From contig JAJDCD010000005.1 in the NCBI GenBank assembly GCA_029261035.1, positions 91,516-155,515 on the forward strand: 64,000 nt of DNA. The letters are read 5' to 3'. Position numbers and translations under genes: made by a program. The notes beneath the pieces were generated by a model that did no database searches, was not told the origin of the DNA, and saw only the letters and a program-made list of their open reading frames with translations. Numbering within the stretch: the first letter of the stretch is position 1; each line of letters starts with the position of its first letter. Origin of the DNA: Candidatus Omnitrophota bacterium (lineage in GTDB: Bacteria; Omnitrophota; Omnitrophia; Omnitrophales; JACROU01). Shown here one piece after another: positions 3,691 through 60,600 of the stretch.

Positions 3691-3709
3691 AAAGTGGGGA
3701 GAGAAAGTT

Positions 3710-4969: not shown

Positions 4970-4989
4970 GTTGGTATAAGAGTTGTTTT

Positions 4990-5250: not shown

Positions 5251-5300
5251 TTAGGATTTAAATTAAAGCTAAAAGCTATAGATTTTGAAGAGGAAAAGTT

Positions 5301-6086: not shown

Positions 6087-6193
6087 CCTTGTTTTACTTG
6101 TATTCATCTCCAGTTTTAATTCTAAATTGCCGAAGAGAATATATGCGTTATACTTAGTTTAAACGGATTGTTTTAAACAAAAAAGAGGTTTTC

Positions 6194-8068: not shown

Positions 8069-8121
8069 TTTAAATCCTAAATAGAGCTTGGTTCGTAGTA
8101 AATATAAATTATCCAAGTTCT

Positions 8122-8163
8122 TGTCATCCTGAGAGGAATTAAAATTTCCTAACTCAGGATGTG
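8122..8163 (+). terminator. Terminator-like hairpin downstream of the acyl-CoA dehydrogenase gene
   Basis: Inverted repeat 'catcctgag' ... 'ctcaggatg' with nested 'aggaa' ... 'ttcct'. The following T-run is weak. Confidence 0.3.
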
Positions 8164-8242
8164 TATTTAAAACTTCTAGATTCTTCTATATACTCAGAAT
8201 AACATTTGAATACTAAAACCATTTGCTAATGAAAGAAACCGA

Positions 8243-9436: not shown

Positions 9437-9493
9437 ACAGCTCAGATTTTAAGACTGTTAAAGTATTCAATTCTGCTGGTCGTTAAAAAAGAC

Positions 9494-10225
9494 ATGTCTA
9501 AAAAAGCCATTTTTTCATTTATTTTGTTCAGTTTTGTATGTTCCACTGCTTTTGCAGAGAATATTCCATTGCAAAGAGCCGCCCATTCTTTGATTATGCC
9601 GCCAGCAGGACAGATGATGAATGGGGAATACGATAAAACAAAAACAAAGGTTATGATGGGTTCCAAATTTGCGTTGACGACAACAGCCATGGTTGTTGGG
9701 TTAACGGTTGGAGGCCCCGTTACTTGGATATTGCTAGGGCCTATTGCGGGAATTCATATTTGGAGTTCAATTGATGCTTATAGAAATGCAGATGGCAGCC
9801 CTTCTCCTCAAATGATTTTAATTGAAAATACATATGGGCAGTTATTAGACGCTGAAAAAATATTGGAACAATCTCGCATTGTAAGATTAGGTATTCGAGA
9901 AGCGGTTAAACAAAGTCAGGTATTGTCTTTACAGTTAAGTCCAGTAAATTCGGGTGGGGTGCCTGTATTGGTGCAGCAGCAAATTCAAGTAGAAAAGTGG
10001 TTAATCCTATCCAAGCAGCACCGACTTTTTGAAGAAGTTAAGATAGATGAAGTTCGAATCACGACCATTGATGCAACGGACATGATGAGACAAGCTCAAA
10101 ATATCGAGCAACAGTTATTAAAACATTCACGTTCTTTTTCTTTCAATTCTATGAGTGATCAATTCTTAATTAGCGAAAAACCTTCTGAATTCCAGAATAT
10201 TGCTGCTAATTTCGCATTGCTTTAA
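9494..10225 (+). CDS. Hypothetical secreted/membrane protein
   Basis: N-terminal signal-like 'MSKKAIFSFILFSFVCSTAFA', followed by a hydrophobic segment. No recognisable domain. Confidence 0.5.
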   Translation: MSKKAIFSFILFSFVCSTAFAENIPLQRAAHSLIMPPAGQMMNGEYDKTKTKVMMGSKFALTTTAMVVGLTVGGPVTWILLGPIAGIHIWSSIDAYRNADGSPSPQMILIENTYGQLLDAEKILEQSRIVRLGIREAVKQSQVLSLQLSPVNSGGVPVLVQQQIQVEKWLILSKQHRLFEEVKIDEVRITTIDATDMMRQAQNIEQQLLKHSRSFSFNSMSDQFLISEKPSEFQNIAANFALL

Positions 10226-10288
10226 TCTAGAGCACCCCTCAATTTCTTTACTTCATTACTCTTCATACTTTTGCTATAATTCCCAGCT

Positions 10289-39631: not shown

Positions 39632-42600
39632 ATGACGCTTTTGATACGTTTTAAGCAGGCCGTAACCTATTTTGTTTTAGTTTCATTTTTCTTCTCATTT
39701 CTTCCAACAAATTCTTATGCAGATGGTGCAACCATTGGTACAATAAACAGCCTTATGACCACCAATCAATCTATGACACCAACACAACTCAAATTAAGCG
39801 AAGTAGCCATCCCTAATAAGATAGGTGTTATTGAATATACCTTCAAGGGGAACTCTGCGCCTTTATTTTATATTCAGGATGCTCATAATTCATTAGAAGC
39901 TCAAAAAAACATAGCGGCTTTAATTAGTCTTTTGGTGCAAGAGTACGGTGTTAAGACTGTTTTGGTTGAGGGAGTTGAAGGTAAGGTAAATCTGGACACT
40001 TATTTTCAATTTTCAGATTCTAATGTTAAGGAAAAAGTTTCAGACTATTTTCTGGAACACCTTCGTCTGAGCGGAGCTCAATATGCTCATATTAATCGAA
40101 CCCAAGATTTTGATCTTATTGGAATTGATCATTTTAAAACATATAAGAAAAATCTTTCAGCCTATGAAAAAGCTGCAAAAAACCGAGAAGTCATTCAGCA
40201 AGACTTGGCTCGAATTTCTAAAGTTCTTAAGTCTTTAGGGGATCGTTTCTATTCTAAAGAAATTAAGGAATGGTTAAAGTTAAAGTTAAGAGTGGAAGAT
40301 AAAAAGCTTTCGATGGGGGATTACCTGTTTCGTTCGATGAAAATGGGCGATTTTCAATTAGAACAATTTCCAAATTTGAAATTAATTTCAACATACCTCA
40401 AACAAGATCAATTATCTAAAGAAGAAGCAAGCCTTTTAGACAAACAATTGAAACAATTGGATTCGGATGTTTTTTTTAATGAATTGAATCAATTTGAAGA
40501 GGCTTTAATTAATCAGTTTTTGACGGACGCTACAGCTAAACAAGTATTAAGATATCAACGTATCGTTGATTTGTTAAATAAACTGAACCTGATTTCAGTA
40601 ACACCGGAAGAGTATTTATTGTTGAAAGAAGAGTTGAAAGAATTTAACTCTGAAGTTCTGGCTAAATTTTTAGCTGCCCATTTAAAGAAAACAATTTTAG
40701 TAAAAAAAGAATGGGAAAAGCTAATCAAGAACTCCCTTGAGTTTTATGAGTTGGCTCGCGAAAGGGATGTTTTCTTCAAAAGACAACTTGAAGCAATTAA
40801 CACCCCTTCAATTTTGGTTACAGGAGGTTTTCATAAAGAGCCTGTGACTAACTTCTTGAAAAAGAATAAAATTTCTCATGCTGTTTTGGCACCTCAAATT
40901 AGTCGTATCAATAAGAAGTATCAAGAACGATATGATTTCTTAATGTCTGGTCAGTATTATGACTTTGAAACATCTTTTATCAAACAAGACCCTGCCGTAC
41001 AAGCAGCTCAGCAGCAAACCTTAGCTTCATTTGCTCGAGATGGGCGGAATGTTCAAGGGATTGTGAATGAAGCGATTATTCAGTTGTTTCCTAATTCCCA
41101 AGAGGCTCGTGCTGCTAGTTTAGGAAATGATAATGCTCTAAAAATTGAACAAGCTTTGAGTCAGGGAGATATTACAACCGGAACCATGCAGTATCTTTAT
41201 GAGTGGTTGAAGCTTCCTGGAGACTTAACTATTCAAGGGACAAATGTATTAGCACGTATTCAGACATTGATAGATGGTAAAAATTGGAAAGAGCTTAATG
41301 ATGCTTTTTTTCAAGAAGTAAAACCAGGAACGGCAGGTGTTCGTGGAGAGTTGGGGATCGGAAGTAATCGAATTAATGTGGTAACCATTGGTAAGTTTGT
41401 AGAAGGTCATGCTCGCCACTTGGAAGCTGTGTGGGCTGGTAAGGTTGAAGGAAAAGAGATTGATACAAACAAGACAGAAAAGGCTGTAATTTTAGCTTAT
41501 GATCCTAGAGAAGGTTCTTATGACGCCCAAGCTAAAGGGCCAGGTTATTTAGTTAAAATGGCTGCTGCCATTTATGCAGCGCATGGATTTAAAGTTTACG
41601 TGTTTGATGGTCCTGCACCAACGCCAGAGTTGTCCTTTGCAGTTCAAAAGCTGGGGGCATTAGCAGGTGCTGTATTTACAGCAAGCCATAATCCTAAAAC
41701 GGATAATGGGTTTAAACCTTATGACGAAACAGGTCAGCAACTTTTAGGCCCAGATGCTGAAGGTCTAAATCAATATGTGGCTGAGATAAAACAGTTTTCT
41801 GATGTGAAAAAAGCATCTTATGATGAAGCTCTTGAGAAAGGGCAGGTTGAAATTGTAGGGCCTACCATTGATGAACAATATGTAAGTGAGTTGCTTCAGT
41901 ATGGTGTGCACATTAAAGCTGATGGTAAATATGACCTAGAACACATTAATACAGATATTACTGTTGGATTTTCTCCTTTGCATGGTACAGCGGGAAGAAC
42001 AGTTCCTGCTTTATTAGCAGAAAGAGGAATTTCTGCAGAAAATATTTTTAATGTTGAAAGCCAATTAAAACCTGATGGAACATTTCCAACAGCAGCAAAG
42101 CCCAATCCAGAAGAGGATGCGGCGTTAGATTTGTTAAAACAATTGGCAGTTGAAAAGAAAGTTGATGTAGCAGCAGCCAACGATCCTGATGCAGATAGGG
42201 TTGCTGTTTTGGTTCCAACCAGTGATGCTAAAGAAGAGTATTTTCTTCTAAACGGGAATCTACAAATGGCAGTGATTGCGGATTATTTACTGAACCAACT
42301 TTCTAAAAAAGGAACTTTACCTAAAAATTCTGTTTTTTGGAAATCTTTGGTGAGCTCAGATCTTATGATGAAAATAGCAGAAGCTTTTGATATTCCAACT
42401 GTAGAATCCCGAGTTGGTTTTAAATTTGCCGGGGATAAAATGAAGGAATACGAAAAACTAGCCGTTGCTCAATTGTTATTAAATGATGAAGAAGAATTTG
42501 TTGCTATTAAAACAAAAGTTGAAAACGACGGGTACAAGAGTCTAAATCGATCCGAAAGAGAATTGATTCTTTCTCGTTTCTCTCAAGTTCTATTGTTTGG

Positions 42601-45355
42601 TGGAGAAGAATCTTATGGGGCTAATCGTGGGGATATTGTTCGAGATAAAGATGGTCCTGCTATGATTGATATGTTTGTTGAAATTGTTGGACGGTATAAA
42701 AAACAAGGAACAACTGTTTATGATCGTCTTTTTGGAGCTAAAGGCATTTTTGATACCTATGGGTATTATCGTGAAACTTTAGGTTCTTACAAGACGCAAG
42801 GAGCTGAAGGAAATGCAATTAAACAAGCGATTATGACAGAGTTTGCATCCAATCCTCCAGCAGAAGTTGCGGGAAAGAAAGTTGTGGCTGTGTTAGATTT
42901 TGCAGAGCAGACAGCTAAATTACCTAAAGGAACACTTCTTTTTGATGGGGAATATAAAAGCGAAACTACTCCAGGTAAGTTTGAACTTGAAAATGAGTAT
43001 GAAGTACATACGTTTAATGACTTGAATGGTAAAAATGTGGGGAGAGAAGGATTTGTGGAGTTGATTTTTGAAGATGGTTCCCGTGTCATTGTAAGACCTT
43101 CAGGGACAGAACCAAAAATTAAATTTTATGCCCTTGGAAGAGGAGAATATTCTGATCGTGAGGCAGTTGATGTATTTATCTCTGCCGCACAAACGGAATT
43201 AGCAGAAATTGCAACCAAAGTTGCAGATAGTTTTAATGCGGCTTCTCTAGGAGCGTATTCGGAAGCTGAATTGGAAAAAGGGAAGGCTTATTATGAAGGA
43301 AGGTTGGATACAACCCCTATTTCTCGACCATGGAGACCTAGCATTGATGCTGACGTTGATGCTATCTTTAAGATGGATACTGCTGAAAGGTTAGAATACA
43401 TTGCTTTGGCGGTTGAATCTCTCATTAAGGGGAAGGGTGTTATAGGAACTCTTGCTGCAGGTGCTAGTTCTCGTATGCCAACTTCTGAGGCTCCTGAAGA
43501 AGTTAAAGAATTGATTCAAGGTAGGGAGATTAAGTCTAAAGCTGCTGTTCCAGTAGGTGTTCTTGATGGACAGGTTTATACTTTTTTAGGAGCTTTCCTA
43601 AAAAATATTGAGCGTCTTCAAAATCAAATTTCTGATTTAGCACGTTCTGATGTTAGACCTTCTGTTTTGATTTTATCTAATCAAGATTATAGGGAAGAGC
43701 TTCAGACGGAGTTGGATAGAGAAAGTCGTTATGGTTTAGATGAGAGTCAATTTGTGGTTTTTAATCAGGAGTTAGGCAACCAATATGTTGCTACTCCAGA
43801 GCATGTCAGAAATCTATATGAATCTGGAAAAATTGATAAAGCTAGATACGATCAAGCAATAGAAATTTCTGAGAATGTTCAAAAGAGATTGTCTGATGGC
43901 AGTATTGAGGCGGTAATTTTGGAGGGGGAACAAACTCCTTTAGGTCATGGTGAGTTTTTTCATCAATTAATTTCTAGCGGGACATTTTTGCAGCTCGTAG
44001 ATAAAGGGCATGAATGGATAAGTGTTCGTAATATTGATAATGCAGCGGCCACTTTTGATGAAGACTGGCTAGTTACTTTGGGTCTTTTTATAAAAAAAGG
44101 ATTGGCGATGCAGCCTGAGGTATCTCCGCGAAGCCCAGGACAAAAAGGTGGAAGTTTGATTGTTACTACAGATAACGGAAATCATCGATTGGCTGAAGAT
44201 CCTGAGATTGCTGCAAAGGGCTCAGAAACCAATTTGCAAAAGGATTATATTGGAGAGACTTCTTATTGGTTTAATGATGCTGTTGCGATTATTGGAACTC
44301 AATTTGTTGTTGATATTTATAAATCTCCTAACCAGTCTAGTGAGGAATTTCTAAATGAACTTCGTGCTAACGCAGAAAACCCAACTGTGCTTGAAGCAAT
44401 AGCTGAAAGAGGGAGAAGTAAATTTCCAACGCTCATGGACCCTAAACCAGCGAAAGAAAGTGACGCAATATCACTAAAGATTGAAACGAATATGTGGCAG
44501 TCTACAGGTGTTGGTAGTGGTGCTGTTAGAGTAGAAGCTGTTGGAGTAACTGCAGTAAAGAATATAGAGCAAGGTTTTGCTGATTTGCCTCTTGAAGATC
44601 AGCGGCAGAAGGTTAGAGAATTAAGAATGTTAGCAACAAAGCAATGGGGGAATCCGGAAGATCCTCAAGTTGAAACTTATTATGGAAATAAGCCTTACAT
44701 AGAACTAATTTTGGAACACATTGCAACTTCTCAATTTATTCCAGAAGGTTTAGATCTGTCAAAAGCTTCAAGTTTGGGTGTGATGACCAAGGAAAAAAGA
44801 CTATCATTACTGGAGTCAGCATTTAATGATTATGCTGCTCTCTTGGATCAACCAGCACCGGTTGTTCTTTCGTTAGACGATGTGCTTAACTTTTCAGATA
44901 CGGTGGCTAAAGAGGTTCAAGTTCTTCTCTTAGAAGGAAAGATAAAGGTTCTTTTAACAGGGGTGACTGATCGCTCATTAGTTCCAGATGTTTTTAATCA
45001 GGAATCTCAAAATGTAGAAATTATTTCAGATGCTATTAGCGCAAACGATGTATCTAAATACAGTGGTTTCTTAGGAAAGGGAAAAGTGGTTCACTTATCT
45101 CAATCTTTAGATTCTCCTGAAACGATAGCCTCTCGTTTGGGTGACGCAAAAGACCGCTTTGTTTTCGTGAAACAACCAGAAAAACAAAACGGAGTATTAA
45201 GCGCCGCGCTTCTTTTCGCATCAGGTTCTATTGAATACAAAGAAGCATTCAGACAAGACGCTTCTGGTTTCTACGTTCCAACAGCCATAGGTCGTCTCAT
45301 GATGAATTTATTCCAAGAATATGTAGCGCAAACGATTATCGAGTCTGCAGCCTAA
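39632..45355 (+). CDS. Giant protein 2 (1907 aa): signal peptide, shared N-domain, a complete alpha-D-phosphohexomutase (PGM/PMM) domain, a eukaryotic-type UDP-glucose pyrophosphorylase (UDPGP family) domain, and the shared C-terminal domain
   Basis: PGM motifs all in frame: 'GTAGVRG' (~41330), 'TASHNP' (41678-41695), 'DPDADR' (42182-42199), 'GEESYG' (42602-42619) and 'RPSGTEPKIKFY' (43094-). UDPGP-like: 'LAAGASSRM', 'FNQ', 'GHGEFF' (43943-) and 'ISVRNIDNAAATFDEDW' (44030-). Confidence 0.85.
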   Translation: MTLLIRFKQAVTYFVLVSFFFSFLPTNSYADGATIGTINSLMTTNQSMTPTQLKLSEVAIPNKIGVIEYTFKGNSAPLFYIQDAHNSLEAQKNIAALISLLVQEYGVKTVLVEGVEGKVNLDTYFQFSDSNVKEKVSDYFLEHLRLSGAQYAHINRTQDFDLIGIDHFKTYKKNLSAYEKAAKNREVIQQDLARISKVLKSLGDRFYSKEIKEWLKLKLRVEDKKLSMGDYLFRSMKMGDFQLEQFPNLKLISTYLKQDQLSKEEASLLDKQLKQLDSDVFFNELNQFEEALINQFLTDATAKQVLRYQRIVDLLNKLNLISVTPEEYLLLKEELKEFNSEVLAKFLAAHLKKTILVKKEWEKLIKNSLEFYELARERDVFFKRQLEAINTPSILVTGGFHKEPVTNFLKKNKISHAVLAPQISRINKKYQERYDFLMSGQYYDFETSFIKQDPAVQAAQQQTLASFARDGRNVQGIVNEAIIQLFPNSQEARAASLGNDNALKIEQALSQGDITTGTMQYLYEWLKLPGDLTIQGTNVLARIQTLIDGKNWKELNDAFFQEVKPGTAGVRGELGIGSNRINVVTIGKFVEGHARHLEAVWAGKVEGKEIDTNKTEKAVILAYDPREGSYDAQAKGPGYLVKMAAAIYAAHGFKVYVFDGPAPTPELSFAVQKLGALAGAVFTASHNPKTDNGFKPYDETGQQLLGPDAEGLNQYVAEIKQFSDVKKASYDEALEKGQVEIVGPTIDEQYVSELLQYGVHIKADGKYDLEHINTDITVGFSPLHGTAGRTVPALLAERGISAENIFNVESQLKPDGTFPTAAKPNPEEDAALDLLKQLAVEKKVDVAAANDPDADRVAVLVPTSDAKEEYFLLNGNLQMAVIADYLLNQLSKKGTLPKNSVFWKSLVSSDLMMKIAEAFDIPTVESRVGFKFAGDKMKEYEKLAVAQLLLNDEEEFVAIKTKVENDGYKSLNRSERELILSRFSQVLLFGGEESYGANRGDIVRDKDGPAMIDMFVEIVGRYKKQGTTVYDRLFGAKGIFDTYGYYRETLGSYKTQGAEGNAIKQAIMTEFASNPPAEVAGKKVVAVLDFAEQTAKLPKGTLLFDGEYKSETTPGKFELENEYEVHTFNDLNGKNVGREGFVELIFEDGSRVIVRPSGTEPKIKFYALGRGEYSDREAVDVFISAAQTELAEIATKVADSFNAASLGAYSEAELEKGKAYYEGRLDTTPISRPWRPSIDADVDAIFKMDTAERLEYIALAVESLIKGKGVIGTLAAGASSRMPTSEAPEEVKELIQGREIKSKAAVPVGVLDGQVYTFLGAFLKNIERLQNQISDLARSDVRPSVLILSNQDYREELQTELDRESRYGLDESQFVVFNQELGNQYVATPEHVRNLYESGKIDKARYDQAIEISENVQKRLSDGSIEAVILEGEQTPLGHGEFFHQLISSGTFLQLVDKGHEWISVRNIDNAAATFDEDWLVTLGLFIKKGLAMQPEVSPRSPGQKGGSLIVTTDNGNHRLAEDPEIAAKGSETNLQKDYIGETSYWFNDAVAIIGTQFVVDIYKSPNQSSEEFLNELRANAENPTVLEAIAERGRSKFPTLMDPKPAKESDAISLKIETNMWQSTGVGSGAVRVEAVGVTAVKNIEQGFADLPLEDQRQKVRELRMLATKQWGNPEDPQVETYYGNKPYIELILEHIATSQFIPEGLDLSKASSLGVMTKEKRLSLLESAFNDYAALLDQPAPVVLSLDDVLNFSDTVAKEVQVLLLEGKIKVLLTGVTDRSLVPDVFNQESQNVEIISDAISANDVSKYSGFLGKGKVVHLSQSLDSPETIASRLGDAKDRFVFVKQPEKQNGVLSAALLFASGSIEYKEAFRQDASGFYVPTAIGRLMMNLFQEYVAQTIIESAA
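41250..43170 (+). other. Phosphoglucomutase/phosphomannomutase-like domain within giant protein 2
   Basis: All five phosphohexomutase signature motifs are present in the canonical order (see giant 2). Confidence 0.8.
43300..44750 (+). other. UTP-glucose-1-phosphate uridylyltransferase-like (UDPGP family) domain within giant protein 2
   Basis: The 'GHGE...SG...L..G.EWISVRNIDNAAATFD' block parallels eukaryotic UGPase 'GHGD...SG...G.EY.FVSNIDNLGATVD'. Gly-rich 'GTLAAGASSRM' parallels 'LNGGLGTSMG'. Confidence 0.6.
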
Positions 45356-45669: not shown

Positions 45670-48600
45670 GTGTCTTTTAGAAAGGTTTTTGCTTATTTAA
45701 TGGGATTTTTGTTGGCACAAAAATATAGGTGTTTAGTAAGGTTTATATCCATAAACTTGGCTTTTATCTTTTTGTTGAATACGGTTGTTGAAGCAGCTCC
45801 GTTGATGCAACATGTGATGACTCCGTCTGTCTTATCCCAATCTGCTATTAATTCTTTTTCTCAACCTCCTTATCTTCCTTTAAGCCCAATTCAAATCAAT
45901 TCCCAGATAGGTTCTGTTCAAGAGAGCTATTTACCCGTAACAAAAAAAGATTCTCCACAAGTTTACTTAATTCAAGATGCTCATGAGAGTTTGGATGCTC
46001 AAGAGAATATTAAGAATATTTTAGAAAAACTTGTTCTAGAGGAAGGTGTGGATACCCTTCTTTTTGAAGGTGGAAGTCTTGATTTTAATTCAAGTATTTA
46101 TCAATTCTCTTCTGATATGGAAATAAATCATCGAATGTGGAAAGAGTTGTTTCGTCAAGGGCACTTGAGCGGGGTGGAGCTTTTTGCTTTAAATCAAAGT
46201 GGTTCCGTTCGATTGAAAGGAATTGAAGATGAATCTATTTATTTTAAAAATCTCAAAACAATTTTAGATACAAATCGACTTTATAAAAAATCTCAAGATG
46301 AGATATTGAGAATAGATCAGCAATATACAATAAAGAAACAAAAAACTTTTTCTGAGCCTTTAAGAAAATTAATAAAAGAAAGAGATGATTTTAGAAAAAA
46401 CAAAAACAATTTTAATCCATATATGCTCTTTTTGATGAAAGAAGCTAAAAAGCGTATAAACCTGGATTTGTCTCAAGCTAAATACCAAAAGCAATACCCT
46501 CAACTTGTGCGTTATTCGAAAATTTCTCAATTTGAAAAAAAGATAAAAGAAAATAGGGATGAAGTGGAGAAGCAACGTATAGAGCTTTTAGAGTTAACTC
46601 AGAATAAGGTGGCTAAGAGTTTGACTAAAGAAAGCTTTCTATTTCTTTTTAATCCAGAGCAACATTATTTAGCTCGAGATCAGTTGCGTTGGTATTTTGA
46701 GTCTTGGTGCGAATGGGCTCAGGCAGAAAATATTGATGTTCAGTTGTACTCTCATTTTATAAATTGGATGGCTTATCATATTCTTAAAAATGAAATGAAA
46801 GGCCCTCAGCTTTTTGATGAATTACAGACTATTGAAATCTTGTTGTTGAAGAATTTGAATCTATCAGAAGAAGAACGGAAGTTGTTGGCCGAAGAGGATG
46901 GGTGGAATTTATGGAATAAGCTCGTTTCTTTAAAGCTCACAAGAGAGGAGTATGAGCGACTTAGAGATACAAATCCTAAGAATGATTTAAAGGGTTTGAA
47001 TTTGTTAACCCAAAAAGCCCTTGAAAACTATGAATGGGTGATCAAAAGAGATGCTGTTTTGTCAGAAAAAGCAATTGAAGCAATAAATTTAAGTAAGTCT
47101 AGTCGAGTTGCTGTCGTTACGGGGGGGTTCCATTCTTACTTTTTAACCCAGAAACTTAAAGAAGAAAAAAAGAGTTATGTTTTAATTGCACCCCGTATTT
47201 CCCAATTAGAGCGTTCTTTGAATTATAAGGATCGAATTCAACAATTATTTTCTTCGACAACAGCATTGGATATTCCAGGAGCTCTTTTGAGCGATCTCTC
47301 CAAACAACGTTTGCTTGTAGCTGCAAGATCTTTGGGAATCCAAGGGGCTAAGAAAAAGGATCTTCCAAGAAAGAGTGGGGCTCAGAGAGAAGATGAAATT
47401 TTTAGAACTCATATTTCTGTGCCTATGCCAGAAATAGAACAGATGCTTTCCTTTCCAGGAAGAATCCAACCATCAATGCAAAATGCTTTGAATGAAACAA
47501 TCAAGCTGATTGTAACGCTGTTTGAAGATGCTTTAATTTCTGTTAATAGAAATGAAGTAGAAAATTTAAAGCGATTTCAAAAATACCCAGGAGGAATTTT
47601 TTATAATCATTTAACGGATGAGCTTAGAGGTGCTATTTCAAATTCTTTGGACTCAACTTTGGAGCGCTATCGACGAGAGGGTATTAGTAGGGAGTTTATT
47701 CATATTGTATTTCGAGTTTATAAGGACCAAGAAAGTAATTATTTTATTGATGTTATTGACGAAGGTGTTGGGGAAACAGCAATTAACAAGACGAATGTTA
47801 AACGTTATTCCGGAGAACGGTATTTAGGAAAGAGAGGAGTTGATCGAGGGAAATCTCTAGAAAGTCAAGTGATGGGTGTTTTTGATGCTCAGCTTTTTGA
47901 ACGAGAAGATGCTCAAGGTGCTGTTTTAGAAATAAAACTCAGCCAGAGAAAAGTCCTTAATCATTTTAAGGAATCAATGGAGGGTTTAAACCTTAGAAGG
48001 GTTAGTAAATACATGGATTCGTATGGGCAGAGTTTGGGTAGGACTAAAGAAGCTTACAATATGCGAATAAATGGTAACCAAGTAAATATACTTGACGCCA
48101 TGATGGAAGGAGAGTTTAAAACAACTTGGCTCACAAGTTTTAAACCTGAAGCATTGCCTAAACTAAAATTACCAGATAAAAAAGAATCGTATTCATTAGA
48201 TGAGGCTTTTATTGTTTTTAGGCAATTAAAGGGAAGTCGATCGTTAACTAAATCTGCATTTAGTGCATGGGTAAAAAAGGTTTTGAGTCGTAGAGCGAGT
48301 TCAAGGATATCTAGAGAATTGCTATCTAATTTGGTGAATACGTTTAGTCTTAGTGAAGCCCGTACTCATTTAGGTGGAGATATGGTAACTGTAAGAGAAA
48401 AAGCTAAGAAAGCAGGTGCTATTTCTGTAGAACATCGCATGTTTATTTCAAGGGATTGGGTTGATCGACAAAGAATTTATCGCTATCAATTGGTTCCGGT
48501 TCATTTGCTAGCAAAAGTAATGGGTGTGAGTAAGAAAGTTCTATTATCTTATTTGGAAGAGCCTAAGAAAAGATTCGGGGACTACTTGTGGGAAGAAGAC

Positions 48601-51600
48601 CTCTTAAAGAAGAAGTCTTTGTTAGAAGTATCAGCAGAGGGAACTAAATATCATATGGATGGGGCTGGTAAAGCATTAATGGTTAGTTTGGTGACAGCGT
48701 ATCAAGTTATTTCAATTTATAGAAAATCATTACGAAACAAAAAGGAGTCTTACTCTGTTGATGAATTGGCAGGATTACTTGGAGTGACAAAAAACATTCT
48801 TGCTCAGGCTATTAAGTCTGGTGAGATTGCAGTGATCCACCTTCCTTTTTTAGGTCCAGAACCTAGAATTTCGATTGTAGATTCAGAGGGAATTCTAAAT
48901 ATTTTTTCAAAAGTAGTAAAAAATTATTCTAAAGTTCTTCGTCCTTATACAAAAAAGAAAATCTCATCTTGGAGAGAATTGATGGCTGTTGTTTCTGGGT
49001 GGGAAACAACCAACTCTTTAAAGGAAAAATGGGGCTTTAAATCTCATAATGGAATTCATCAGATGATGAGTAGGGGTAAAATTAAAGGGTTTCATATTGT
49101 GCACCCTTTAACAGAACAAGGGGTTTGGTATTTTCCTCCTGAAGAAGTAGGTCGAGTTGATGATTTGGAAGAGATGAAACTAGCCAAGGTTTTGAAGATG
49201 GTGAACAAAGGAAGTCGTGCAAAAATTAAGACACGAAGTGAGTTGGAAAAGGTGCTGCACTCTTACTTTTCTTTAGAAAAACTTGAAAAGCGATGGTCTG
49301 TTTCTAATCGAAGTTTGAAAGGAATGATTCAAAGAGGAACGTTAGAGGCAGTTCGATTAGATTTTATTGGGGAACAAAAGAGAGGGTATTTGGTTTCTCC
49401 TAAAGAGGTGAAGAGAATTGAGGGATTGGAACAAAAAAAATTAAAAAAAATTAAGAGATTTGTTTCTAAGTTTTCATCTCAAACAATTAAAACAATTGGT
49501 AAGTTAAGAAAAGTTACGCAGAATTGGATTAAACCAACAACACTTGATGAAAGACTAGGGATTAGAGGGGGTACAGTTCGGCAAGCTATTGATAATGGGT
49601 TGATTCAAGCTGTACGCATGGATTTAATTGCATTTGGTGGTGATAAGTCCGCATATTTAATTCCAACAGCAGAGATTAAAAGATTGGAAGGAAAAGTTAA
49701 AGCTCTAGCTAGAGATATCTCAGCTTTTTCAAAGAGTAAACCTAAAACAATTCAGGATATTAAAACAGCAACTAGAGAGTGGTTGAGAATTGAAGATTTA
49801 GCTAAGGAATTTGATGTTTCATTCGAAACCATTTTTGCGTTAGTGCGATCGGGTGAAATAACAGCGTTTAAATTAGATTTAATTGGTTTAGGGGCATCTA
49901 AAGCTCCGTACGTGATTCCTCCAGAAGAAGTATCGAGAATTCGTGAGGAGCAGAATGAGAAAAAAAGAAAAGTGCTTTCTTTTGTGGAGCAGTATGAAAA
50001 TGTTTCTTCTGAAGATGAAATAACGGTAATGAGGTTAAAAGATATTACGAGTCGTTGGGTCAAGTTAAGGCAATTTAAGACAGAGTTTGGTGTTCATTTG
50101 GCTACAGCGTTTAATTATGTAAGGCAGGGAAAAGTTAATGCAGTTCAAATGGATTTGTTGGGTTATGGAGGAAAGAAAGCATTTTACTTAATCCCACCTC
50201 AAGAAATTGAAAGAATTCGCCAAGAAGATAAACTTAAACTGACTCAAATAATTGATTTTGTTAGAACGTATATTAGTTCTAAAAGAAGAGTTAAGACATG
50301 GGAGGATGTTCAACAAGTTACAAATAGCTGGTTAAAGATTGAGGATTTAGTCAAAGCTGCTTCTGTTAAATTTGCGACAGCTTCAAGGTGGGTTAAAACA
50401 GGCAAGGTAAAAGGCATTAAAATTAAACTGATAGGGAAGAATAACACAAATGGTTATTACATCATTCCACCTCAAGAGATAGATAGGGTTAAAAAAGAAA
50501 GAATGGATCGGAATAATCTAGCGTCTAGTTTAGGCCAGGAATCTACTGCTGTAGTTGATGTTCTATATCAAAAGTATCGATTTCTTTTACCTAAAAGTGT
50601 TCAGAAACAATTTAATTATGAGTTGGTGGCAGGGTGGTATGAAGTTGTTTCATCTGATACAACTGTACTTCCGATGAAAATATTTGATTTTATTCAAAAA
50701 GTATATTCTTTATTAAGTCCCAATGAAGTAAATCAAGTAGCTGTTTTATTAGCGGACTTTCAAAAAGAGATTACAGAAATTTTGACGGCAGATGAGTCAC
50801 TGGAACCGTCTGAAGAAGAAAAAGCACCTCAAGAAGTAGAGTTGGTAAAAGCAGTGGCGTTACAAAAGCTTGTGGAGAAAAGACCTTTAGTAGATGAGAT
50901 CTGGGAAGGAGACAAAAAAGCTCGGATCTCAATGGATCCTGTGTTTTGGGGTGTTCTGCATTCCGATGAAAAGAAAGAATGGTTAAAGAAAATAAAGAAA
51001 ATCCTTACCCGCAATTACTCTTCATTGAAAAAGGGGTTAGATTATGAAGAGCCTATTGGAGGCGGAAAAAAATTTAGGTCTCTAAAGTTAGGTTTGGTAG
51101 ACGCGCCGCTAGTGCTTTCCCACGGGGTTAAAATTCATGCTATGCAACTCAAAGGAGTTGTTTTTGATTCTGGAAATATAACAGATGTTTTTAATATGCA
51201 TCACGCTAAAAGAGAGTGGGGGCAGAAGCTCCCAGATGCTCCTGTCGTACAACCTATTTATCATGAAGATGGAACTATCAGTTACATCCCTCGACAGTGG
51301 TCTCCTAAGGGCGGAATGGTATTAGATGAGGCTAAAAGAGAATTTGAGATGCATCGTTATTTTATGAAAAGTGGAATGCCTGTAAATTACCCCCTTGCTT
51401 ATGGAGAGTTTTTGGGTGAAAAGGAACCATTAGGCAGAAAAATAGGATTTGTTTTATTAGGTCAAAGATTTCAACAAAACTATCGTTTCCATGATGTGCT
51501 GAACCGAATTTTGAATGCGAGGTATGTAGTGCCTATACAGGAGCTTTCAAAAGAGGGTAAAACACCAGAAGAGATCGAGAGTTTATTTAGAGAAACCGAA

Positions 51601-54600
51601 TTAGAGTTATTGGCCAACATTCAATCACATGGTCACTTGCTTCGCACGATTCATACTCCTATGGTCCAAGAAGAGGAACGGTGGGAGGGGGCTTTTCATG
51701 GAAATTTACATCCAGCAAATGTGAGTGTGGATCCTGATTATTTTCTAAATATTCATGATTTAACCCATGCATACAACAAAGAAGAAGTAAGTTCATTGAA
51801 AGAGCAATTTGCAAGACAGTTACTTGATTTTGATGCTGCTTTATCGAGAACTCTAGAAGATAAAGTTTTCATGGACTCGCAGTTACAAGACTTTCATGTA
51901 AGGAAAGGGTTGCCTGTTTCTTGGAAGGGTATGGAGTATGTGAAAACTTTTCTTCTTGGCTATTTTTATGATTTTCCACCAGAAGTTATTGAAAAAGTGG
52001 CTAGAACCATGGTTATGGAGATAGAGGGACACCCCATAACTCGCACCAACAATATTATACAAAAACTAGGAGTGACTCGACTTCCTGCTTATCAACATCC
52101 AGACTTTATTTTCGATCTGATGCGGTATGTTGTTGGAATTAAAAAAGATGGAACACCTCTTTTAGAAGAAGAAAAAGAATCTGCTAAGAAAGAAATAGAA
52201 CAAAAAATTCTTGCCTCCAGTTTAGGTCGTACTAAAGATCATTTTAATATGACCTTCGAAGGACATGCTTTTAATATTTTAGATGAAATGAAGAAGGGCA
52301 ATTTTAGTATGAAGTGGATTTTGAATTTTAAACCAGAACCGCTTACTAGGATACAGGTGCCGGATAAAAGTGTTTATGTGAGTCGAAAAACCGTTTTAGA
52401 AGCAGCAAAAAGAAAAAGATTTGGCTTACCTTTAAGTGCTAAACGGTTAGAACAGTTACTGAAAGCAGGTGCAATTAAGCAGAATGAGAAAGGGGAGTTG
52501 AGTCGTTATGATGCTGAGTCTTTTATAAATGCTTATAGTTTGAGAGAAACGGCTGAGCTTACAGGTCTAAATAGAGATCGATTGTCAGGCTTATCAGGCA
52601 GTAAAGACCGTATGGTTGTTGTGCAGGGAAACTATTATGTTTTCCATGATTGGATTGAAGAAATGCGGGCACGGCATCATCGCCTTGTGCCTGTTTCTCT
52701 TTTATCTGAAATGCTGAACCTAACCCATTCAACATTTCTGTCTAATCTCCGGAATCCCAAAAAATTCTTACGTCCTCATCTATTAAGGCAGTTATTCGAT
52801 GATAGAAAAAATCTGTTAGAGTCTCGATTTACAGGAGAAGAGTACCACTATTTTGGAGATCATTCTCCAACGTTGTCTGTGGATATTTTAACGGCATGGA
52901 GTATCTTTCAATTACTTCAAAGGGTTCCTAATATGGAAACGGCCAGTACGGTGGATGAATTATCTAAAAAACTTTATGTTAATAGAGTTTTTGTGTCAAA
53001 AGCTATCGAAGAAGATCGGGTTGAAGCTACTTTGGTTAGGGGTATGCGCAAAGGAGGTCCTGTTTATTTAATTGATGAAGAGGAGGTAAGGCGCATAGAA
53101 AAAGAATTTAACCAAAAATTAAAATTATTAATAAAGGAAGTTAAAGCTTATGTTGATTCAAAGGTCCCTTTAAAAACATGGGAAGATATTCAAGAAGTTG
53201 TCAAAAATTGGGATACAACAGAAACATTAAAAGAACGATGGAATTTTAAAAGTATTAGTGGTATTCATGAAATGATGAGAAGGGAAGTTTTGAAGGGTGT
53301 TAATGTTGTAAACCCCTTATCCACAGTAGGTGTGAATTATTTTCCTCCACAGGAAGTTGAGAAATTAGATAAAAGAGATAGAAATAAGCTTGATGAAATC
53401 TTGGAATTTATTAACAGATATAGAGGGTCTCCCATTACAACTCGTGCTGAGATTGATGCAGCTGTAAGTAAATGGAGCACTCCTACTTATTTATCTAAAG
53501 TGACTGGAATACCAAGGCAAACAATGACCCGAAGAGTAAAGAAGGGTGCTGTCAAAGGTGTTCTGTTAGATCTTATTGGTTTTAAAAAGAAATTCATGGT
53601 TCCTCCTTCTGAAGCCCAAAAATTTATTCAAGCAAACTCAAAAATAAGTAAAGCCTCAAGTTTAGGAAGATCTAAAGATCATTTTGATGCCACAGTCCTA
53701 GGAGAAGAAGTGAATTTGCTTGATGCCATGAAAGAGGGCGCGTTTAAAGTCCAATGGTTTTTTAGTTTTAAGACTAAGAAGCTTCCTCGAGTTGAAATTC
53801 CAAAAAAACAAAAATATCTTACTAAAAAAGAAGTGTTACAGTTAGTATCTCAAGTAAAAGGAAAAAGAAGAATTGGTCCTTTGCGTTTGAATCAATTAAT
53901 TGAGAAAGAATATATCAAAAGAGATTCTAATGGAAACTTAAATCGAGAGGATGTGTTGTTTTTTCTAAATGCATTTTCATTAAATGAAGCGGCAGCATTC
54001 ATTGGGGTAAACCCAGACAGGCTCGGTAAAATTGCCTTAGAAAATGGATCGGTGAAATATGGTAAAGAGTATTTTGTTCCATATCAATGGGTTGAGCTAT
54101 TAAGAGCCAATTTTCACGATCTTGTTCCTATTCGAATTTTAGCAGAAATGTTAGATATGGAATTTTGGAACCTGGTAAATAAATTAAGAAGCCCTTCAAA
54201 TTATTTTTCCGAAGATATTATAAAAGAGTTTTTCCCTTATCAAGAGACTTTAATTGATAAAAGAATTACAGGAGAAGAGTATCACTTTATCAATGGTAAC
54301 AATGTTTTGGCTGTTGATTTGGCTACGGCATGGATGCTGTTTGTCATATTTAGAATGTTTCCAAATCCCAAGAAAGCGGCCACATTGACTTCGTTGGCTA
54401 ATAAACTTTCTGTGAACAAAACATTGGTATCTACAGCGGTGAAGGAAGGTCGAATTAAAGCGACTCTCGTTTCTGTCTTAAAAAAGGGAGTTCCGTCCTA
54501 CTTGGTTGATGAAGAAGAGTTTGACAGAGTTATTAAGGAATACAGTAAGAAGCTGAAAGACCTTAAAGCTTTGTTAGTTCCATATCTGCGAGGTAAACAA

Positions 54601-57600
54601 CTGAAGACGTGGCAAGATATTCAGGAAGTGGTTCAAGGTTGGGATACTGCAGAATCTTTAAAAGAGAAATGGGGATTTAATCAGGTTGATAGAATCCACA
54701 GAATGGTGAAAAGGGGCCTATTAAAGGGAGTTCATGTTGTGAACCCTCTATCGGTACATGGGAAGTGGTACTTTCCACCTTCTGAAGTGGAAAAGGTAGA
54801 TGTTGTAGATCGAGAAAAACTGCAAGAAGCTTTGGGTTTTGTTAATCGCTATAGAAAAAGGAAAATACGAACTCGAGAAGCGTTAATCAAATCTCTAAAG
54901 AGATGGAGTTCGCCAGTTAAGTTAAGTAAATCAACAGGAATCCCTCGTCAGACCATGACGCGCTTGGTGAGAGATGGGTATGTGGAACATGTAAAGCTAG
55001 ATATATTAGGACAACGGTCTCGTTATGTTATTCCTCCAGAAGCTGCTAAGAGATTTATAGACGAGTTGAATGAAAAAATTATTACCTTTTCAGATAAACA
55101 CTTATCTCCTTATGGTCAAGGTGCTAGAACATATAAACAACTAAAAAAATTGCTTAATAGATGGTATACGATTTCTGAATTAAGTAAAACAACAGGAATT
55201 AACCAAGAAGAAATTGCCTGGAAAGTTGAAATCGGTGAATTAAACTCTGTCAATTTTGATTTCACTCCTCTTCAAGGGAGGATATACATCCCACCTCAAG
55301 AAGCAGAGAAATTAATTCAATCTTCAAGCGTGTCTGCTAATAGTTTAGGTGTTGCAAAAGAGCACTTTGATATTTTTGTTAATGGGAAGAAAGTAAATTT
55401 GATTGATGCGATGGTTGATGGGTCATTTCGTCCAGAATGGATAAGTCGTTTTGTCCCTAAATCTTTACATGAAGTAAGCTTAAAAAATGTTGCTCCATCG
55501 ATTACTTTTGAAAGAGCTGAAGAGTTATCAAAAAGATTGGGGCAAAGAGTTATTACTGTTTACATGCTTTCCGAATTACAAGAGGCGGGTATTATAAGTA
55601 AAGAGTTTGAAGGAATGATTTCAAAAGAAGATCTTCAGTTTTTAATTAATTCCAGAAAATTGGGGGAAGCGGCACGGCTTGTAGAGCTTAATGAGGCTGA
55701 TGTGTGGATGTTTGCTTCCAAACATGGAGCAAAAAGGTTGCGTAGAGAGTATTTCGTTCCTTTGGAGTGGATAGAAGAAGTTATGCTTAGAAAGCACCAT
55801 TTGATTCCAGTTCAGTTATTAGTTGATGAGTTGGGTGTGAACTATGCATCTTTTGTGGATCGTTTAAAGAACCCAAGAAAGCATTTCTCCAAAATTATAG
55901 CTGAGGGCTATTTGGAAGGGAGAGACTCATTGCTAGAACCTTCTCTTAGAGGCAGTCTTGTTCATGGAAATTATCAAAATTTTATGATTGATTTGTCCCT
56001 AGCGTGGAAAGTAGTTCGATTAATTAAGGAAAAATCACTGTCCGACGGATACATCACTTCGGATGTGTTAGCAGAAAGAATAGGCGTTGATGTTAATGTC
56101 ATTCTTTTAGGGATTAGAAATGAACTGATCAAGGTTAAAGAGATTTCTGATATTGCTGGTAGTGGCAAGTACCATTATGCCATTTCTGAGGATGAAGCAG
56201 AAAGAATAGAAAAATTATTTAGTGCTCAGTTGGCTGTATATCAACAGACTTTGGAAGAAAGTGGTTTTATAAAAAGAAAGTTAAACGGATGGAAAGATTT
56301 AAAGAAATTTATTCAGTCATGGCTTGGAACGGAACAGTTGAGACAGCGTTGGGGTTTTACGGGAAATCAAGCAATTATGCAGATGTACCAAAGAGGGAGT
56401 GTTTGGGGATTAGAACTAGCACATCCACTGTCAAGAACAGCAAAAGTCTTATTTCCATTGAAGGAAATTAGGAGCATTGAGAGAAAGGAAAAAATCAAAT
56501 TCGAACTTATTGCTAAATTTATTTCTGAACATGTTGGAGTAGAGGTGAATGAAAAAGCAGAAATGTCAGATGTTTTTGAAGATTGGTATACCGTAAATGA
56601 TTTACTGAAAGCCACAGGCTATAGTCGGAAAAAGGTTATGAGACAAATAAATAACGGGAATATCCCCTCAATCAAAATAGATCTACTAGCTATGCAAAGC
56701 CGTATTGTAATTCCACCCACTGTAGCTCAGCTGTGGATTGGACAACAACAAAAACCACCTTCGACAGCCTCCAGCTTAGGTAGAACAACAGAAGATTTTA
56801 ATATTACTGTGAATGGAACTCCTGTGAATTTACTGGATGCGATGATGGAAGGAACATTTCAAATATCTTATTTACTGCAACTATATCAACCTATGAAAAG
56901 ACAAGGTCATGCTCCTAAGAAAGCTTACTACTCCATTGATGAAGTGCTTGAAATCTTTAAAGAGAAGGGCAGAGGCCCTATAAGGAAGTTACATATAAAT
57001 GAGTTTGTGACAATGAAAAGAAGAAAAAAAGAGGATAAGAGAATTAGGCATGAAGAGCTTCTCTGGTTGCTGAATACGGTACCTTTAAAAGAAGTTACCA
57101 AGTCTTTAGTTGGTCAACATTCGGATTTAAGAGAAAGGGCATTAGAGGGCGGTGCTGTTTTAGTTAAAGATAGAATGTTTGTTCCTGTTGCATGGCTTTC
57201 CCAACAGCAAGAAAAACAGGCTAATTTGGTTTCTGTGGGTTTATTAGCGAAAGTTATGGGTGTTTATCGCACTAAGCTATTTAAGTATATATTGGATCCA
57301 CAAGGGATGTTTGGAGAGGCTATTTTTAATCAATATTTTCAAGACAAAGAATCGTTGTTGGAATTGTCTCAAAACGGAACAGTTTTTCATGGAACACAAA
57401 AGGCACGAATGATTACACTAGAGACAGCTTGGGCAATTGTAAGAATTTATAAAATCTCATTAGAGAGAGCGAAAGGCTCTATTGGTATTGTAGCGTTAGG
57501 CGAAGAGTTGGGTAGAGATCGTTACTTTGTTGACAAAATTATTAGAAGAGGAGAAATAGATGCTTCGTTTATTCCTTTAGTAAGTGACGGCAAATATAAA

Positions 57601-60600
57601 GACAGAATAGTAGCTTCAGAACTTGAAAGAATTAGGGCTTTATACCGTAGATCATTAGCAAGTTATTCAGATGTACTTAAAAAATATGGGGTTGGTCCAT
57701 TTAAAACATGGAGTGAGCTAGAAGAGTTTTTTGAATCATGGTATACCGCTGATGATGTAAGGCGTAGATTTGGTTTTAAAATCAAACGAAGTGTTTATGA
57801 TATGTCTGAACGTGGAGTCTTGACCGGTATTCATGTAGCATCCCCTCTGATGCCACAAGGCCAAATTCGTTTTTTTCCAGTAGAAGTTGATAATCTTTTT
57901 AATAAAGACTTAGAGAGAGTTAATGAGATTTTGGTATTTATTAATCGCTTCAGAAAGCGTCCTATAGGAAATAAATCTCAAATACAAAGAGCAATTCGCG
58001 ATTGGTATAAACTGCCTCAGTTAGAAAAAAAATGGGCTGTCTCAGATGGAACTTTGTTAGATTCAATTAACAAAGGGAGCTTAGAAGCTATTAATATTGG
58101 CTTGATAGGAATGAAAGAACAAGGCTACTGGGTTCCAAGGCAAGAAGTACAGCGAATTGAAAAAGAACAGAAAAAAAGAAGAGAAGAGATTCTGAAATTT
58201 GTTTCTCAATATACAGATGAATCGATTAATACTACAAAACAACTTAAAAAAGCAACTCGTAAATGGTTCGCTGTTGAAGGAGCTGCAAAGAGGTTGGGGG
58301 TAAAGAAATCTCTGATAAAAAGTATGATTAAACGAAAAACCATTAGAAGTGTGAAGATGGATTTGCTTGGTTATGGAGGGGGTAATACGTTGATGATGAT
58401 CCCTCCTCAAGAGATAGGAAGAATCGAAAGGGAAGAAAAAGAAAAGTTAGATAGAATTATAGCTGATATTTCTCAATTTACTGAGAAACCTTTAATGACA
58501 GTAGAAGATGTTTTGAGAGCAACTCAAAGTTGGGTTAAAGCAGAAGAGTTTGCTAAAGAATTTGGTGTGAATACGGCCCATGTTTTAGCTTTAATTAGAT
58601 CTAATAAAATTCGTGCAGTTGAAATGAATTTATTGAAAGTTCGTGGAAATAAAATGTTTTATTTGATTCCTCTTTCTGAAGTGGAGCGTTTTAAATTAGA
58701 TCAAAAAAATCAGCTTGCTGAAATTATTCCACAAGTACGTGAATATACGGATGCCGAGATTGACACTATTGAAGGTTTGAAAAAAGCAACATTAGATTGG
58801 AGCAGTACGGGGGACTTTTCAAGAGAGTTTGGTTTTCCTGCAGCATCAGTGACTCGTATGATTAAGGCTAACAATATTAAGGCTATACGATTTGATTTGT
58901 TTGGATTTGGAGGAAAAAATAGATTGTATTTAATTCCCCCACAAGAAGTTGCCAGTATAAGGCAAGAACAAGAAAGGAGATTTAAAGAGGTTCAGAATTA
59001 CTTGCTTCATAATTTTAATATCGAAATTATGACATTGACTGATTTAGAAGAAGTAACTCAAGATTGGTTAGGGAAGGAAGATGTTAGGAGAGCTTTAAAA
59101 ATAAGTCAGGCAACATTTTATTCTCATGTGAAGGATAGAAAAGTTAAATCCGTATTTATTGACTTGTTGGGCTACAAAAGAAGAGCTGGTTATTATGTGT
59201 CTCCATATGAAGTGGAAAGGTGGGGGGGAGAGAGTTTAGATGAAGGGGCTTCAAAAAGGAAAGGTGAAAATATAAAATTAAAAGCAAAAAAAATTAAATC
59301 TAAAGCTTCTAGTTTGGGTAGAGAGATAGCGCTTTTGGTTGCGGAAGAGTATCCTTATAATCAGTTGGTGCTTATACTTGATCGTGTAGACAGTTCATCT
59401 GATTATGCTGAGTTTGAGATTCGTTCTAAGAAACAAAAAATTGGAGAAGGAAGTTTTTTTAAGGGAGATGATCATTGGAATTTAGTCCACTTTGAATTGG
59501 GTTCGGAGTATAACTACCAGGAGGAAGGTAAGGAGGTTATAAAGTGGTTTGCTCGATACCTTCAGAATATGTTTCCAGGGAGTAGAAACCCTTTAAGGTT
59601 TGGTTGGGTGTATAACCCTGAAATGTTGAGTTTGGCTCACTCTGTTTTTGAACCAGACTCCATGGAAATAATTTTTAAAAAACCTGGACCGTGGTATTCC
59701 ATGGCTGATCCTAGTTTTAACTTGTTTTACTCTGCAGGTCCTTTACGTATTTATGATGATGTCCCTCTTTCTACAAAAGAAATTAAAGTTATTAAACAAG
59801 GGAGTTTTTACGTTCCTGTGAGCTATCCTCAAGAGGTGAAAAATGTCGTAGTAAGCAAATATCACGTATCAGCACGATATAAAAGTACAGGTAACTTATT
59901 GAGAAAGATTCAGTTTGAGAGACCCTTTTCTATTAAAGGAAAGATACGGAAATCTCTATTGTCTTCCGCACGTTCTCTAGGGGATGAGCAGGATGAGTAT
60001 GGATTAACTCGAAAGCAAAAAGAAGCAGTGCATCATTTCTTGTTTCCTAAAGACTTATCAGGTGAAGCAATATTAAAACAGGTTTTGATGTTACTTATCC
60101 CATATATCCTTTTAGGGGGATTGGTGGCTGCTGTGATGAGTCGTGAGAAAAAGTCAGATAATCAAGCGGTTCCTCAATCAACATCAGAAGGGAAAAGTTT
60201 AGGTGGGACACGGCCTTTGTCTGCGGTAGATTATTTTGCTCAACTGGAACAAGAGCTGTCTGAAGCTTGGCAAGCTTGGGATCATCAAAGCTCGATGATG
60301 GATATGGGTTTTGTCGAATCTGCTTTAGAGCAAAAAACAAATTATTACGCATTGATGGGTCTTATAGCAAATTCGTTTATGCATTTTTCAACTCCTACAT
60401 CAAAATTAGAAGAAGATGACGTAGTTCTTTATATTGCGCCAAATCAAAATGGTAACACAGGTATTTACCGTGTTTTAAGTGTATCTGGAATGCAAGTTCA
60501 ACTGATGAATGTAGCAAACAAAACAATTTTAGTAGCGGAGACGAAGAAAATAAGAAGGATTGATTTATCAAAACCTAGAATTATGTCTCAGGTTGAAGAA

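Follow-up and report, generated by a model that had tools for sequence, protein, structure and literature searches.

A recurrent junction motif in giant multi-cassette proteins of Omnitrophota suggests polyprotein-like processing

Introduction

Multi-enzyme giant proteins of the bacterial phylum Omnitrophota have been described in two preprints (Nielsen & Lui 2026, 10.64898/2026.06.07.730766; West-Roberts et al. 2023, 10.1101/2023.11.21.568195). Both pose the cleavage of these giants as an open question, and information on cleavage points is absent according to West-Roberts et al. (10.1101/2023.11.21.568195). In this study we analyzed a 64,000-nucleotide stretch of a Candidatus Omnitrophota genome (assembly GCA_029261035.1, contig JAJDCD010000005.1, positions 91,516 to 155,515 of the forward strand; hereafter the window, to which coordinates refer unless amino acids are stated). 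Three giant open reading frames (ORFs) are located on its + strand downstream of ordinary metabolic genes, namely g1, g2 and g3 of 3,078, 1,907 and 5,887 amino acids (aa), respectively. We suggest, with a probability of roughly 0.55, that g3 belongs to a family of "punctuated" multi-cassette giants of Omnitrophota and is a polyprotein-like, processed protein, the cleavage, the protease, the scissile bond, the DNA binding and the location of its products being predicted.

The g3 family resembles the giants of the two preprints in its phylum, in the tiling of unrelated enzymes (phosphoglucomutase, HATPase, methyltransferases and kinases) in one membrane-anchored polypeptide, and in repeats that are old at the DNA level, but its members are shorter (1.9-5.9 kaa, thousand amino acids) and fall under the 10-kaa cut-off of those papers. 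Neither preprint mentions the junction motif, the TIKI-like N-terminal domain or the helix-turn-helix (HTH) cassette described below. Literature searches on the motif strings, on "polyprotein" together with Omnitrophota, and on bacterial polyproteins returned nothing relevant, and the motif looks like a so far undescribed cutting or junction signal.

Outside the phylum, the closest parallels are toxins and viral polyproteins. The MARTX toxins of Vibrio and the large clostridial toxins carry an array of exchangeable, self-contained modules between conserved terminal regions, as the g3 family does. Their modules are freed by cleavage next to Leu in inter-domain linkers, and the cysteine protease domains of MARTX and TcdB cut after Leu. 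The cargo of the g3 family differs from that of MARTX in consisting of metabolic enzymes and putative DNA-binding cassettes rather than known toxins, and its candidate protease sits at the N-terminus and has another fold. Viral polyproteins (picornavirus, nidovirus) likewise encode many proteins in one ORF and combine a short lineage-specific recognition motif with a cis-encoded protease, for which the g3 family has a candidate; however, the g3 family consists of chromosomal bacterial genes amid housekeeping genes, its cassettes are cellular enzymes, and its processing is predicted. The likeness to MARTX is functional only, and the g3 family is a member of neither MARTX nor the viral polyproteins.

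Results

A junction motif at the unit borders of three giant proteins

Every cassette border in g3 bears the motif [AG]-[SA]-S-L-G. Of the 19 SLG tripeptides, 12 lie in g3, 3 in g1 and 4 in g2, and 17 are preceded by [AG]-x. In the three giants together, [AS][ASNR]SLG is observed 15 times against 0.14 expected from shuffled sequences, whereas 8,266 aa of ordinary proteins encoded in the same window contain a single [AG]xSLG. The motif codons differ synonymously at every position, a sign that it is the peptide that is under selection. In both AlphaFold2 (AF2) models that were built (the first cassette and the N-terminal domain), the residues flanking the motif score below 50 in the predicted local distance difference test (pLDDT), and the motif sits in low-confidence linkers. 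Among 75 SLG sites in 13 proteins of the family, position -2 relative to the SLG is Ala or Gly at 68 and position -1 is Ser or Ala at 47, and positions further out are unconserved. The initial annotation had taken ASSLG for the opener of a repeated module in g3; it does open these modules, but it is also the general punctuation of all three giants and their family, and the modules can thus be reread as discrete, possibly released, protein units. The features of the three giants are as follows.

29880..39116, + strand: g1, with an N-terminal domain (29880-31580), a C-terminal domain (38322-39113) and SLG at 31572, 32436 and 38313
39632..45355, + strand: g2, with an N-terminal domain (39632-41125), SLG, a phosphoglucomutase cassette (41126-43252), SLG, a UDP-glucose pyrophosphorylase cassette (43253-44779), SLG and a 191-aa tail
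45670..63333, + strand: g3, 5,887 aa from GTG 45670
45730..45798, + strand: N-terminal hydrophobic helix of g3 (aa 21-43), signal-anchor-like, positively charged on its N-side, Kyte-Doolittle 2.03
45910..47199, + strand: putative TIKI/erythromycin-esterase/ChaN-superfamily domain of g3 with a large helical insert and invariant D103-x-H105 (45982), E133 (46066) and H488 (47131); also in g1 and g2
47329..47337, + strand: first junction motif of g3, AARSLG, in a low-pLDDT linker at the end of the N-terminal domain
47338..48030, + strand: 234-aa SLG-bounded segment of g3, without a family match; likeness to GHKL ATPases by eye only
48031..50526, + strand: cassette M1, with SLG, head, body and 7 HTH_17-type units (48742-50529)
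50527..52218, + strand: acidic 564-aa SLG-bounded segment of g3, unrelated to the cassettes and orthologous to part of a homologue, P0009 (35% identity)
52219..53658, + strand: cassette M2, with SLG, head, body and 3 units (52936-53655)
53659..55341, + strand: cassette M3, with SLG, head, body and 4 units (54376-55347); M2 is its nearest paralogue (43%)
55342..56772, + strand: cassette M4, with SLG, head, body and 3 units (56029-56757); clusters with single-copy cassettes of other genomes
56773..59310, + strand: cassette M5, with SLG, head, body and 7 units (57472-59250); aligns end to end with M1 (32.6%)
59311..62463, + strand: four more SLG-bounded segments of g3 (221, 74, 317 and 437 aa), with SLG at 59311, 59974, 60196, 61147 and 62458
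62464..63330, + strand: conserved C-terminal domain of g3, 289 aa, ending in TMA; also in g1, P0009 and two further loci (L001 and L009), and of no known family

Motif-bounded segments correspond to free-standing proteins

The SLG sites of g2 at aa 496, 1205 and 1714 bracket phosphoglucomutase (PGM) and UDP-glucose pyrophosphorylase (UDPGP). In a related Omnitrophota genome (locus L001, 6116-9732), PGM (710 aa) and UDPGP (495 aa) are free-standing adjacent genes that lie between two giant genes. These stand-alone proteins match g2 aa 504-1198 and 1212-1710 with 56% identity, exactly between the SLG motifs. The stand-alone UDPGP begins about three residues after the position equivalent to SLG and finishes just before "KASSLG". 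The pair thus offers a natural comparison of fused (g2) and unfused (L001) forms.

The same relationship between motif and domain border can be found in homologues of the giants, in which the best stretch of each mapped Pfam domain falls within a single motif-bounded segment, and frequently no more than 10 residues from a motif. In P0009, AA_kinase (739-1046) lies between SLG 731 and SLG 1079, and in P0008 the order is HATPase (1331-1433), SLG 1437, AA_kinase (1444-1746), SLG 1769, an HTH cassette and SLG 2341. Alignments of the HTH cassettes likewise span the motif-bounded segments from the first residue to the last.

The motif is lineage-specific and its position is kept

Among 12 genomes matched by the N-terminal domain, 11 are Omnitrophota metagenome-assembled genomes (MAGs), of which 10 are titled Candidatus Omnitrophota and one is Ca. 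Taenariivivens, which we take to belong to this phylum; the 12th is titled "uncultured bacterium". Scanning metagenomes with the N-terminal domain gave 38 further loci. At least six giant genes with this domain (L015, L018, L019, L021, L024 and L027) are spread around the chromosome on one contig (Ga0315338_1000003, 2.17 Mb) that is probably a near-complete genome.

It is evident that the family is punctuated by different motifs in different lineages. Close relatives of the three giants carry [AG]xSLG at 7-9 sites per ~3,000 aa. A second clade (L028, L031, L032, L033, L036 and L049) has [GA][AS]RL[AS] instead, with 22 GARLA sites where 0.17 are expected, and deeper branches repeatedly show RSE[LMA]R (the RSExR-type loci L030, L034, L044, L039, L026 and L012). 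The main forms of the three motifs share a single residue, the Leu in position four. The first site of every motif-bearing protein is found at aa ~490-720, near where the N-terminal domain ends, and Pfam domains start 9-13 aa past the alternative motifs as well (HD_5 after GARLA in L031, HAD after RSELR in L030). Paralogues of one genome share the same motif type, even where their N-terminal domains are only ~25% identical, as between g2 and g1 or g3.

The conserved N- and C-terminal domains

The three giants have in common an N-terminal region of ~500-560 aa, which consists of a hydrophobic helix and a domain with invariant IQDAH, FEGG and TGGFH. Residues D103, H105, E133 and H488 are invariant across seven sequences of this domain, which has no match in Pfam or NCBIfam. 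A profile search of PDB gave a single, marginal match to Bcr135 (2RAD/3B55, E = 7.9e-4), in which IQDAH falls on GEATH, H105 aligns with His85, and E133 of FEGG aligns with Glu114, adjacent to Glu113. The top match of the AF2 model in Foldseek is again Bcr135, at a non-significant level (E = 0.025, prob 0.77), and ChaN (2g5g) ranks 37. Bcr135 is a member of the TIKI superfamily with the catalytic pair His85/Glu113 (PMC6254334), and true endopeptidases are found in the TIKI family, namely RRSP, which is a MARTX effector (PMC6254334), and Tiki1 (PMC8191133).

The catalytic pattern of the TIKI/TraB/erythromycin esterase/ChaN superfamily, D/E-x-H ... E ... H, is conserved in the N-terminal domain of the giants, which differs from Bcr135 in a helical insertion of ~280 residues, the membrane anchor and the fusion to a multi-kilodalton cargo string. 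As a lead only, the cut of Tiki1 in Wnt3a presumably falls after Leu (S-L|A-V), if eight residues are removed from the N-terminus of Wnt3a.

At the other end of the proteins, g1 and g3 have in common a C-terminal domain of ~290 aa that ends in T-M-A (S-M-A in g1) in 5/5 aligned sequences. No relative of this domain could be detected in Pfam or PDB.

Five old and diverged copies of an HTH cassette in g3

The initial annotation had described g3 as five consecutive modules of 480-560 aa with a fixed internal order, sharing 50-60% aa identity as the result of a recent intragenic amplification. We compared the ORF with itself in chunks by BLASTP. Off-diagonal matches (E down to 1e-40) connect aa 784-1620, 2182-2664, 2662-3225, 3223-3702 and 3700-4548, and the five homologous modules are thus borne out at the protein level. 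The modules open with SLG at aa 788, 2184, 2664, 3225 and 3702, that is, at 48031, 52219, 53659, 55342 and 56773, no more than 10 nt from the starts first proposed, and the array ends with the SLG at 59311. All the opening blocks quoted earlier are present, and a five-way alignment recovers the order of SLG, head, body, "type A" unit and "type B" units. However, only M2-M5 are contiguous, since M1 (aa 790-1621) is followed by the unrelated acidic segment (aa 1622-2185), and the module lengths are 832, 480, 561, 477 and 846 aa. Over head, body and A unit, the copies share 26-34% identity, with 43% for M2 and M3; 50-60% is reached only locally between these two. The string "TGEEYH", thought to mark the modules, occurs in M2 and M3 and not in the others.

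A composite HTH-containing module has indeed been amplified within the gene, as homologues elsewhere carry one or two copies against five in g3. The amplification is old rather than recent, given that DNA-level similarity is almost gone (self-comparison of the DNA gives just two matches of ~100 bp at 67-69%) and protein identity is low. Furthermore, the copies within g3 are as distant from one another (26-34%) as from the copies of other genomes (22-33%), which also argues that the cassette is not recent. M4 clusters with orthologous copies of other genomes. M2 and M3 form a within-lineage pair as judged from their 43% identity, and M1 and M5 perhaps form another, sharing the same 7-unit layout at 34% identity over head, body and A unit and 32.6% over the whole 830 aa. 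These comparisons indicate that the five modules are old, diverged paralogues of one cassette.

Each cassette starts with a head of ~45 aa, continues with three divergent domains of winged-helix-like type and ends in 3-7 excisionase-type HTH_17 units. Iterated hidden Markov models (HMMs) built from the "type B" units identified 24 units in g3 (7, 3, 4, 3 and 7 in M1-M5), all of which match the unit HMM at E-values from 8.5e-10 to 3.6e-30. Both unit types that had been distinguished are present, but they are of one domain family (hhalign E = 1.5e-29). The unit upstream of "type A" is also homologous to the HTH units (profile-profile E = 1.4e-19), two more segments of the body show marginal likeness to them (E = 4e-4 and 1e-3), and the same comparison detects no relation between them and the head. 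The HTH-like character suspected of the "type B" units is confirmed by Pfam HTH_17 (PF12728), which scores 62.2 bits on M1 and 42.8 bits on M3, above the gathering score of 27; M2 alone scores 15.8 bits, which is below it.

The AF2 model of M1 (pLDDT 82.5) is a string of winged helices of beta-alpha-alpha-beta-beta order (helix-turn-helix plus a beta-hairpin wing) connected by long helices. Single units match phage excisionase and HTH proteins when searched with Foldseek against BFVD (prob 1.00, TMt 0.55-0.76, rmsd 1.6-2.3 A), and the whole cassette gives only non-significant matches to tandem winged helices in PDB (UFL1/DDRGK1, ScpB and MarR). The cassettes are strongly basic (isoelectric point 9.0-10.0, net charge +6 to +61), whereas the other g3 segments are acidic or near neutral. 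Nucleic acid is the most likely ligand of the cassette and would be bound along an extended surface, and charge and isoelectric point bear on this only indirectly.

When 1.84 billion representatives were searched with a profile of the full cassette, five proteins were found at E<1e-30, namely g3 and four other long proteins (1,818-4,626 aa), in which the cassette is found once (P0007, P0008 and P0009) or twice (P0006). The cassette type is known only from the giant-protein family of g3. Weaker matches of the profile are other tandem HTH_17 proteins (P0011, P0014-P0018 and P0025), which likewise have arrays of 3-7 units, in small proteins and in helicase fusions. The 24 units of g3 share with the HTH_17/excisionase-MerR-type winged helices the PF12728 match and the phage excisionase fold, but they add an N-terminal helix and a long linker helix at a fixed period of ~88 aa, and the full g3 cassette combines head, a ~235-aa body and units. 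A word-indexed homology search with M2 gave no match, and neither did scanning the GTDB genomes with a back-translation of the module alignment.

Other segments and genomic setting

The copy of g3 in the database (P0005) has 5,877 aa and starts from ATG 45700 instead of GTG 45670, and the hydrophobic helix is intact with both starts. Seven g3 segments, as well as the N- and C-terminal domains, have no match in Pfam or NCBIfam, and g1 has no Pfam match at all. Internal repeats were noticed in g1 (aa 964-1101 with 1728-1864, and aa 1196-1252 with 1903-1962). The 74-aa segment of g3 (59980-60201) is essentially one strong transmembrane helix (aa 4800-4825, 60067-60144); it would be a tiny membrane peptide if released, and otherwise the topology of the final ~1,060 residues would flip. 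A weak resemblance to signal peptidase I in g3 aa 4845-5161 (60202-61152) was considered as an alternative protease and set aside, because the NCBIfam match (TIGR02227, E = 0.006, 16 bits) is below threshold and no catalytic Lys is seen by eye. The [AG]-x-S part of the junction motif would fit the -3/-1 rule of signal peptidase.

The window is chromosomal with a G+C content of ~37%, and its first 29 kb encode GTP-PEPCK, GcpE, thiolase, acyl-CoA dehydrogenase, DsbD, glycogen phosphorylase, Amt, PrpD and citrate synthase. The block of thiolase, acyl-CoA dehydrogenase, DsbD-thioredoxin and glycogen phosphorylase (3710-12304) is syntenic with a contig of an Omnitrophota MAG (JACROU010000056.1; L002 1-8251), on which a giant gene of the g1/g2/g3 family likewise follows downstream.

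Discussion

The general plan of the family would be an N-terminal membrane anchor, a hydrolase domain of the TIKI/erythromycin-esterase superfamily, a variable string of cassettes and, often, a conserved C-terminal domain. We propose that the junction motif is a proteolytic processing site, with the cut possibly adjoining the motif Leu, and that the prime protease candidate is the TIKI-like domain encoded in cis. Some twelve separate proteins would then arise from the 17.7-kb g3 gene, among them five DNA-binding paralogues of 477-846 aa. As far as can be judged from the sequences, this family shows what characterizes a polyprotein, namely a recognition motif that keeps returning where independently functional units meet. 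A more specific proposal, to which we give slightly short of even odds, is that the Omnitrophota giants of this family are true bacterial polyproteins with ASSLG, GARLA and RSELR as cleavage sites, read by a TIKI-type protease that may be the N-terminal domain itself or a partner acting genome-wide.

Several points weigh against processing, or against its cis-acting form. Cleavage is predicted, and no neo-termini are known. The predicted N-in/C-out anchor would put the sugar-nucleotide enzymes and the DNA-binding cassettes outside the cytoplasm, and such an extracytoplasmic placement of the cargo is hard to square with a housekeeping role. Tandem winged helices can also serve as protein-protein scaffolds. 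The assignment of the N-terminal domain to the TIKI superfamily is marginal, relying on the profile match at E = 7.9e-4 and the non-significant Foldseek match at E = 0.025 to the same protein, and the superfamily also includes esterases and non-enzymes. The uniformity of the motif within a genome would be explained by a shared trans-acting reader no less well than by autoprocessing in cis. Finally, a stretch of 1,959 aa in g1 is without any SLG motif.

The main alternative is an uncleaved, membrane-anchored giant scaffold that works as one chain. [AG][SA]SLG would then be a conserved hinge, capping or docking motif, and the five cassettes would form a single 24-unit arm that binds nucleic acid or protein. 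The Omnitrophota giants are usually treated as single membrane-anchored proteins (PMC10066038; 10.64898/2026.06.07.730766), enzymes can work while tethered, the cassette finds its best PDB matches, weak as they are, in scaffolding arrays of tandem winged helices, and cleavage of g3 is only predicted. However, a mere linker need not hold an invariant five-residue motif, nor swap it wholesale between clades at a kept position; the motif brackets exactly what are elsewhere free-standing proteins; and every member is headed by a hydrolase domain with intact catalytic residues. We therefore regard the scaffold as the strongest competitor, yet a somewhat unlikely one. Cleavage might instead follow delivery, if the giants were secreted multi-effectors in the manner of MARTX, exported via the signal anchor, releasing their cassettes into a host or prey by processing at the Leu motif, with the HTH cassettes acting on host DNA. 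The N-terminal signal-anchor has positive-inside polarity, the cassettes vary between conserved N- and C-terminal regions, Omnitrophota have been proposed to be host-dependent or predatory (PMC10066038), and the MARTX effector RRSP is a TIKI-family protease (PMC6254334). This is improbable in view of the cargo, which includes ordinary metabolic enzymes (PGM, UDPGP and amino-acid kinase) that are stand-alone chromosomal genes in a relative, and of the Pfam scan of g1, g2 and ten g3 segments (M4, M5 and the 74-aa segment being outside it), in which no RTX repeats, C80 cysteine protease or type I secretion signal were found; no secretion system is encoded nearby within the window either.

The tandem arrangement of the cassettes and their sharp borders, as expected from site-specific shuffling, could also suggest a recent tandem duplication or an assembly artefact, with the motif as a signal at the DNA or RNA level (recombination, RNA processing or re-initiation). 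The synonymous variation of the motif codons, the low protein identity (24-43%) and the near absence of matches in the DNA self-comparison effectively refute this explanation. In addition, 17.7 kb are read without a stop in a genome of 36% G+C, and the same protein is found in a public collection, from an NCBI contig, so that we attach almost no weight to it.

If g3 and its relatives are processed as proposed, cutting of a single membrane-anchored precursor would release many ordinary proteins (enzymes, kinases and, in g3, five DNA-binding paralogues), which would be a new mode of co-expressing and co-localising gene products without the separate translation of an operon. The motif recasts the five modules of g3 as five paralogous, probably separable, multi-winged-helix proteins, and it provides a rule for splitting such giants for structure prediction and annotation. 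To the question whether Omnitrophota giants are cleaved or remain a single chain, the lineage-specific junction motif contributes concrete predictions of cut sites and a candidate protease; if true, these would constitute the first cleavage map for bacterial giant proteins.

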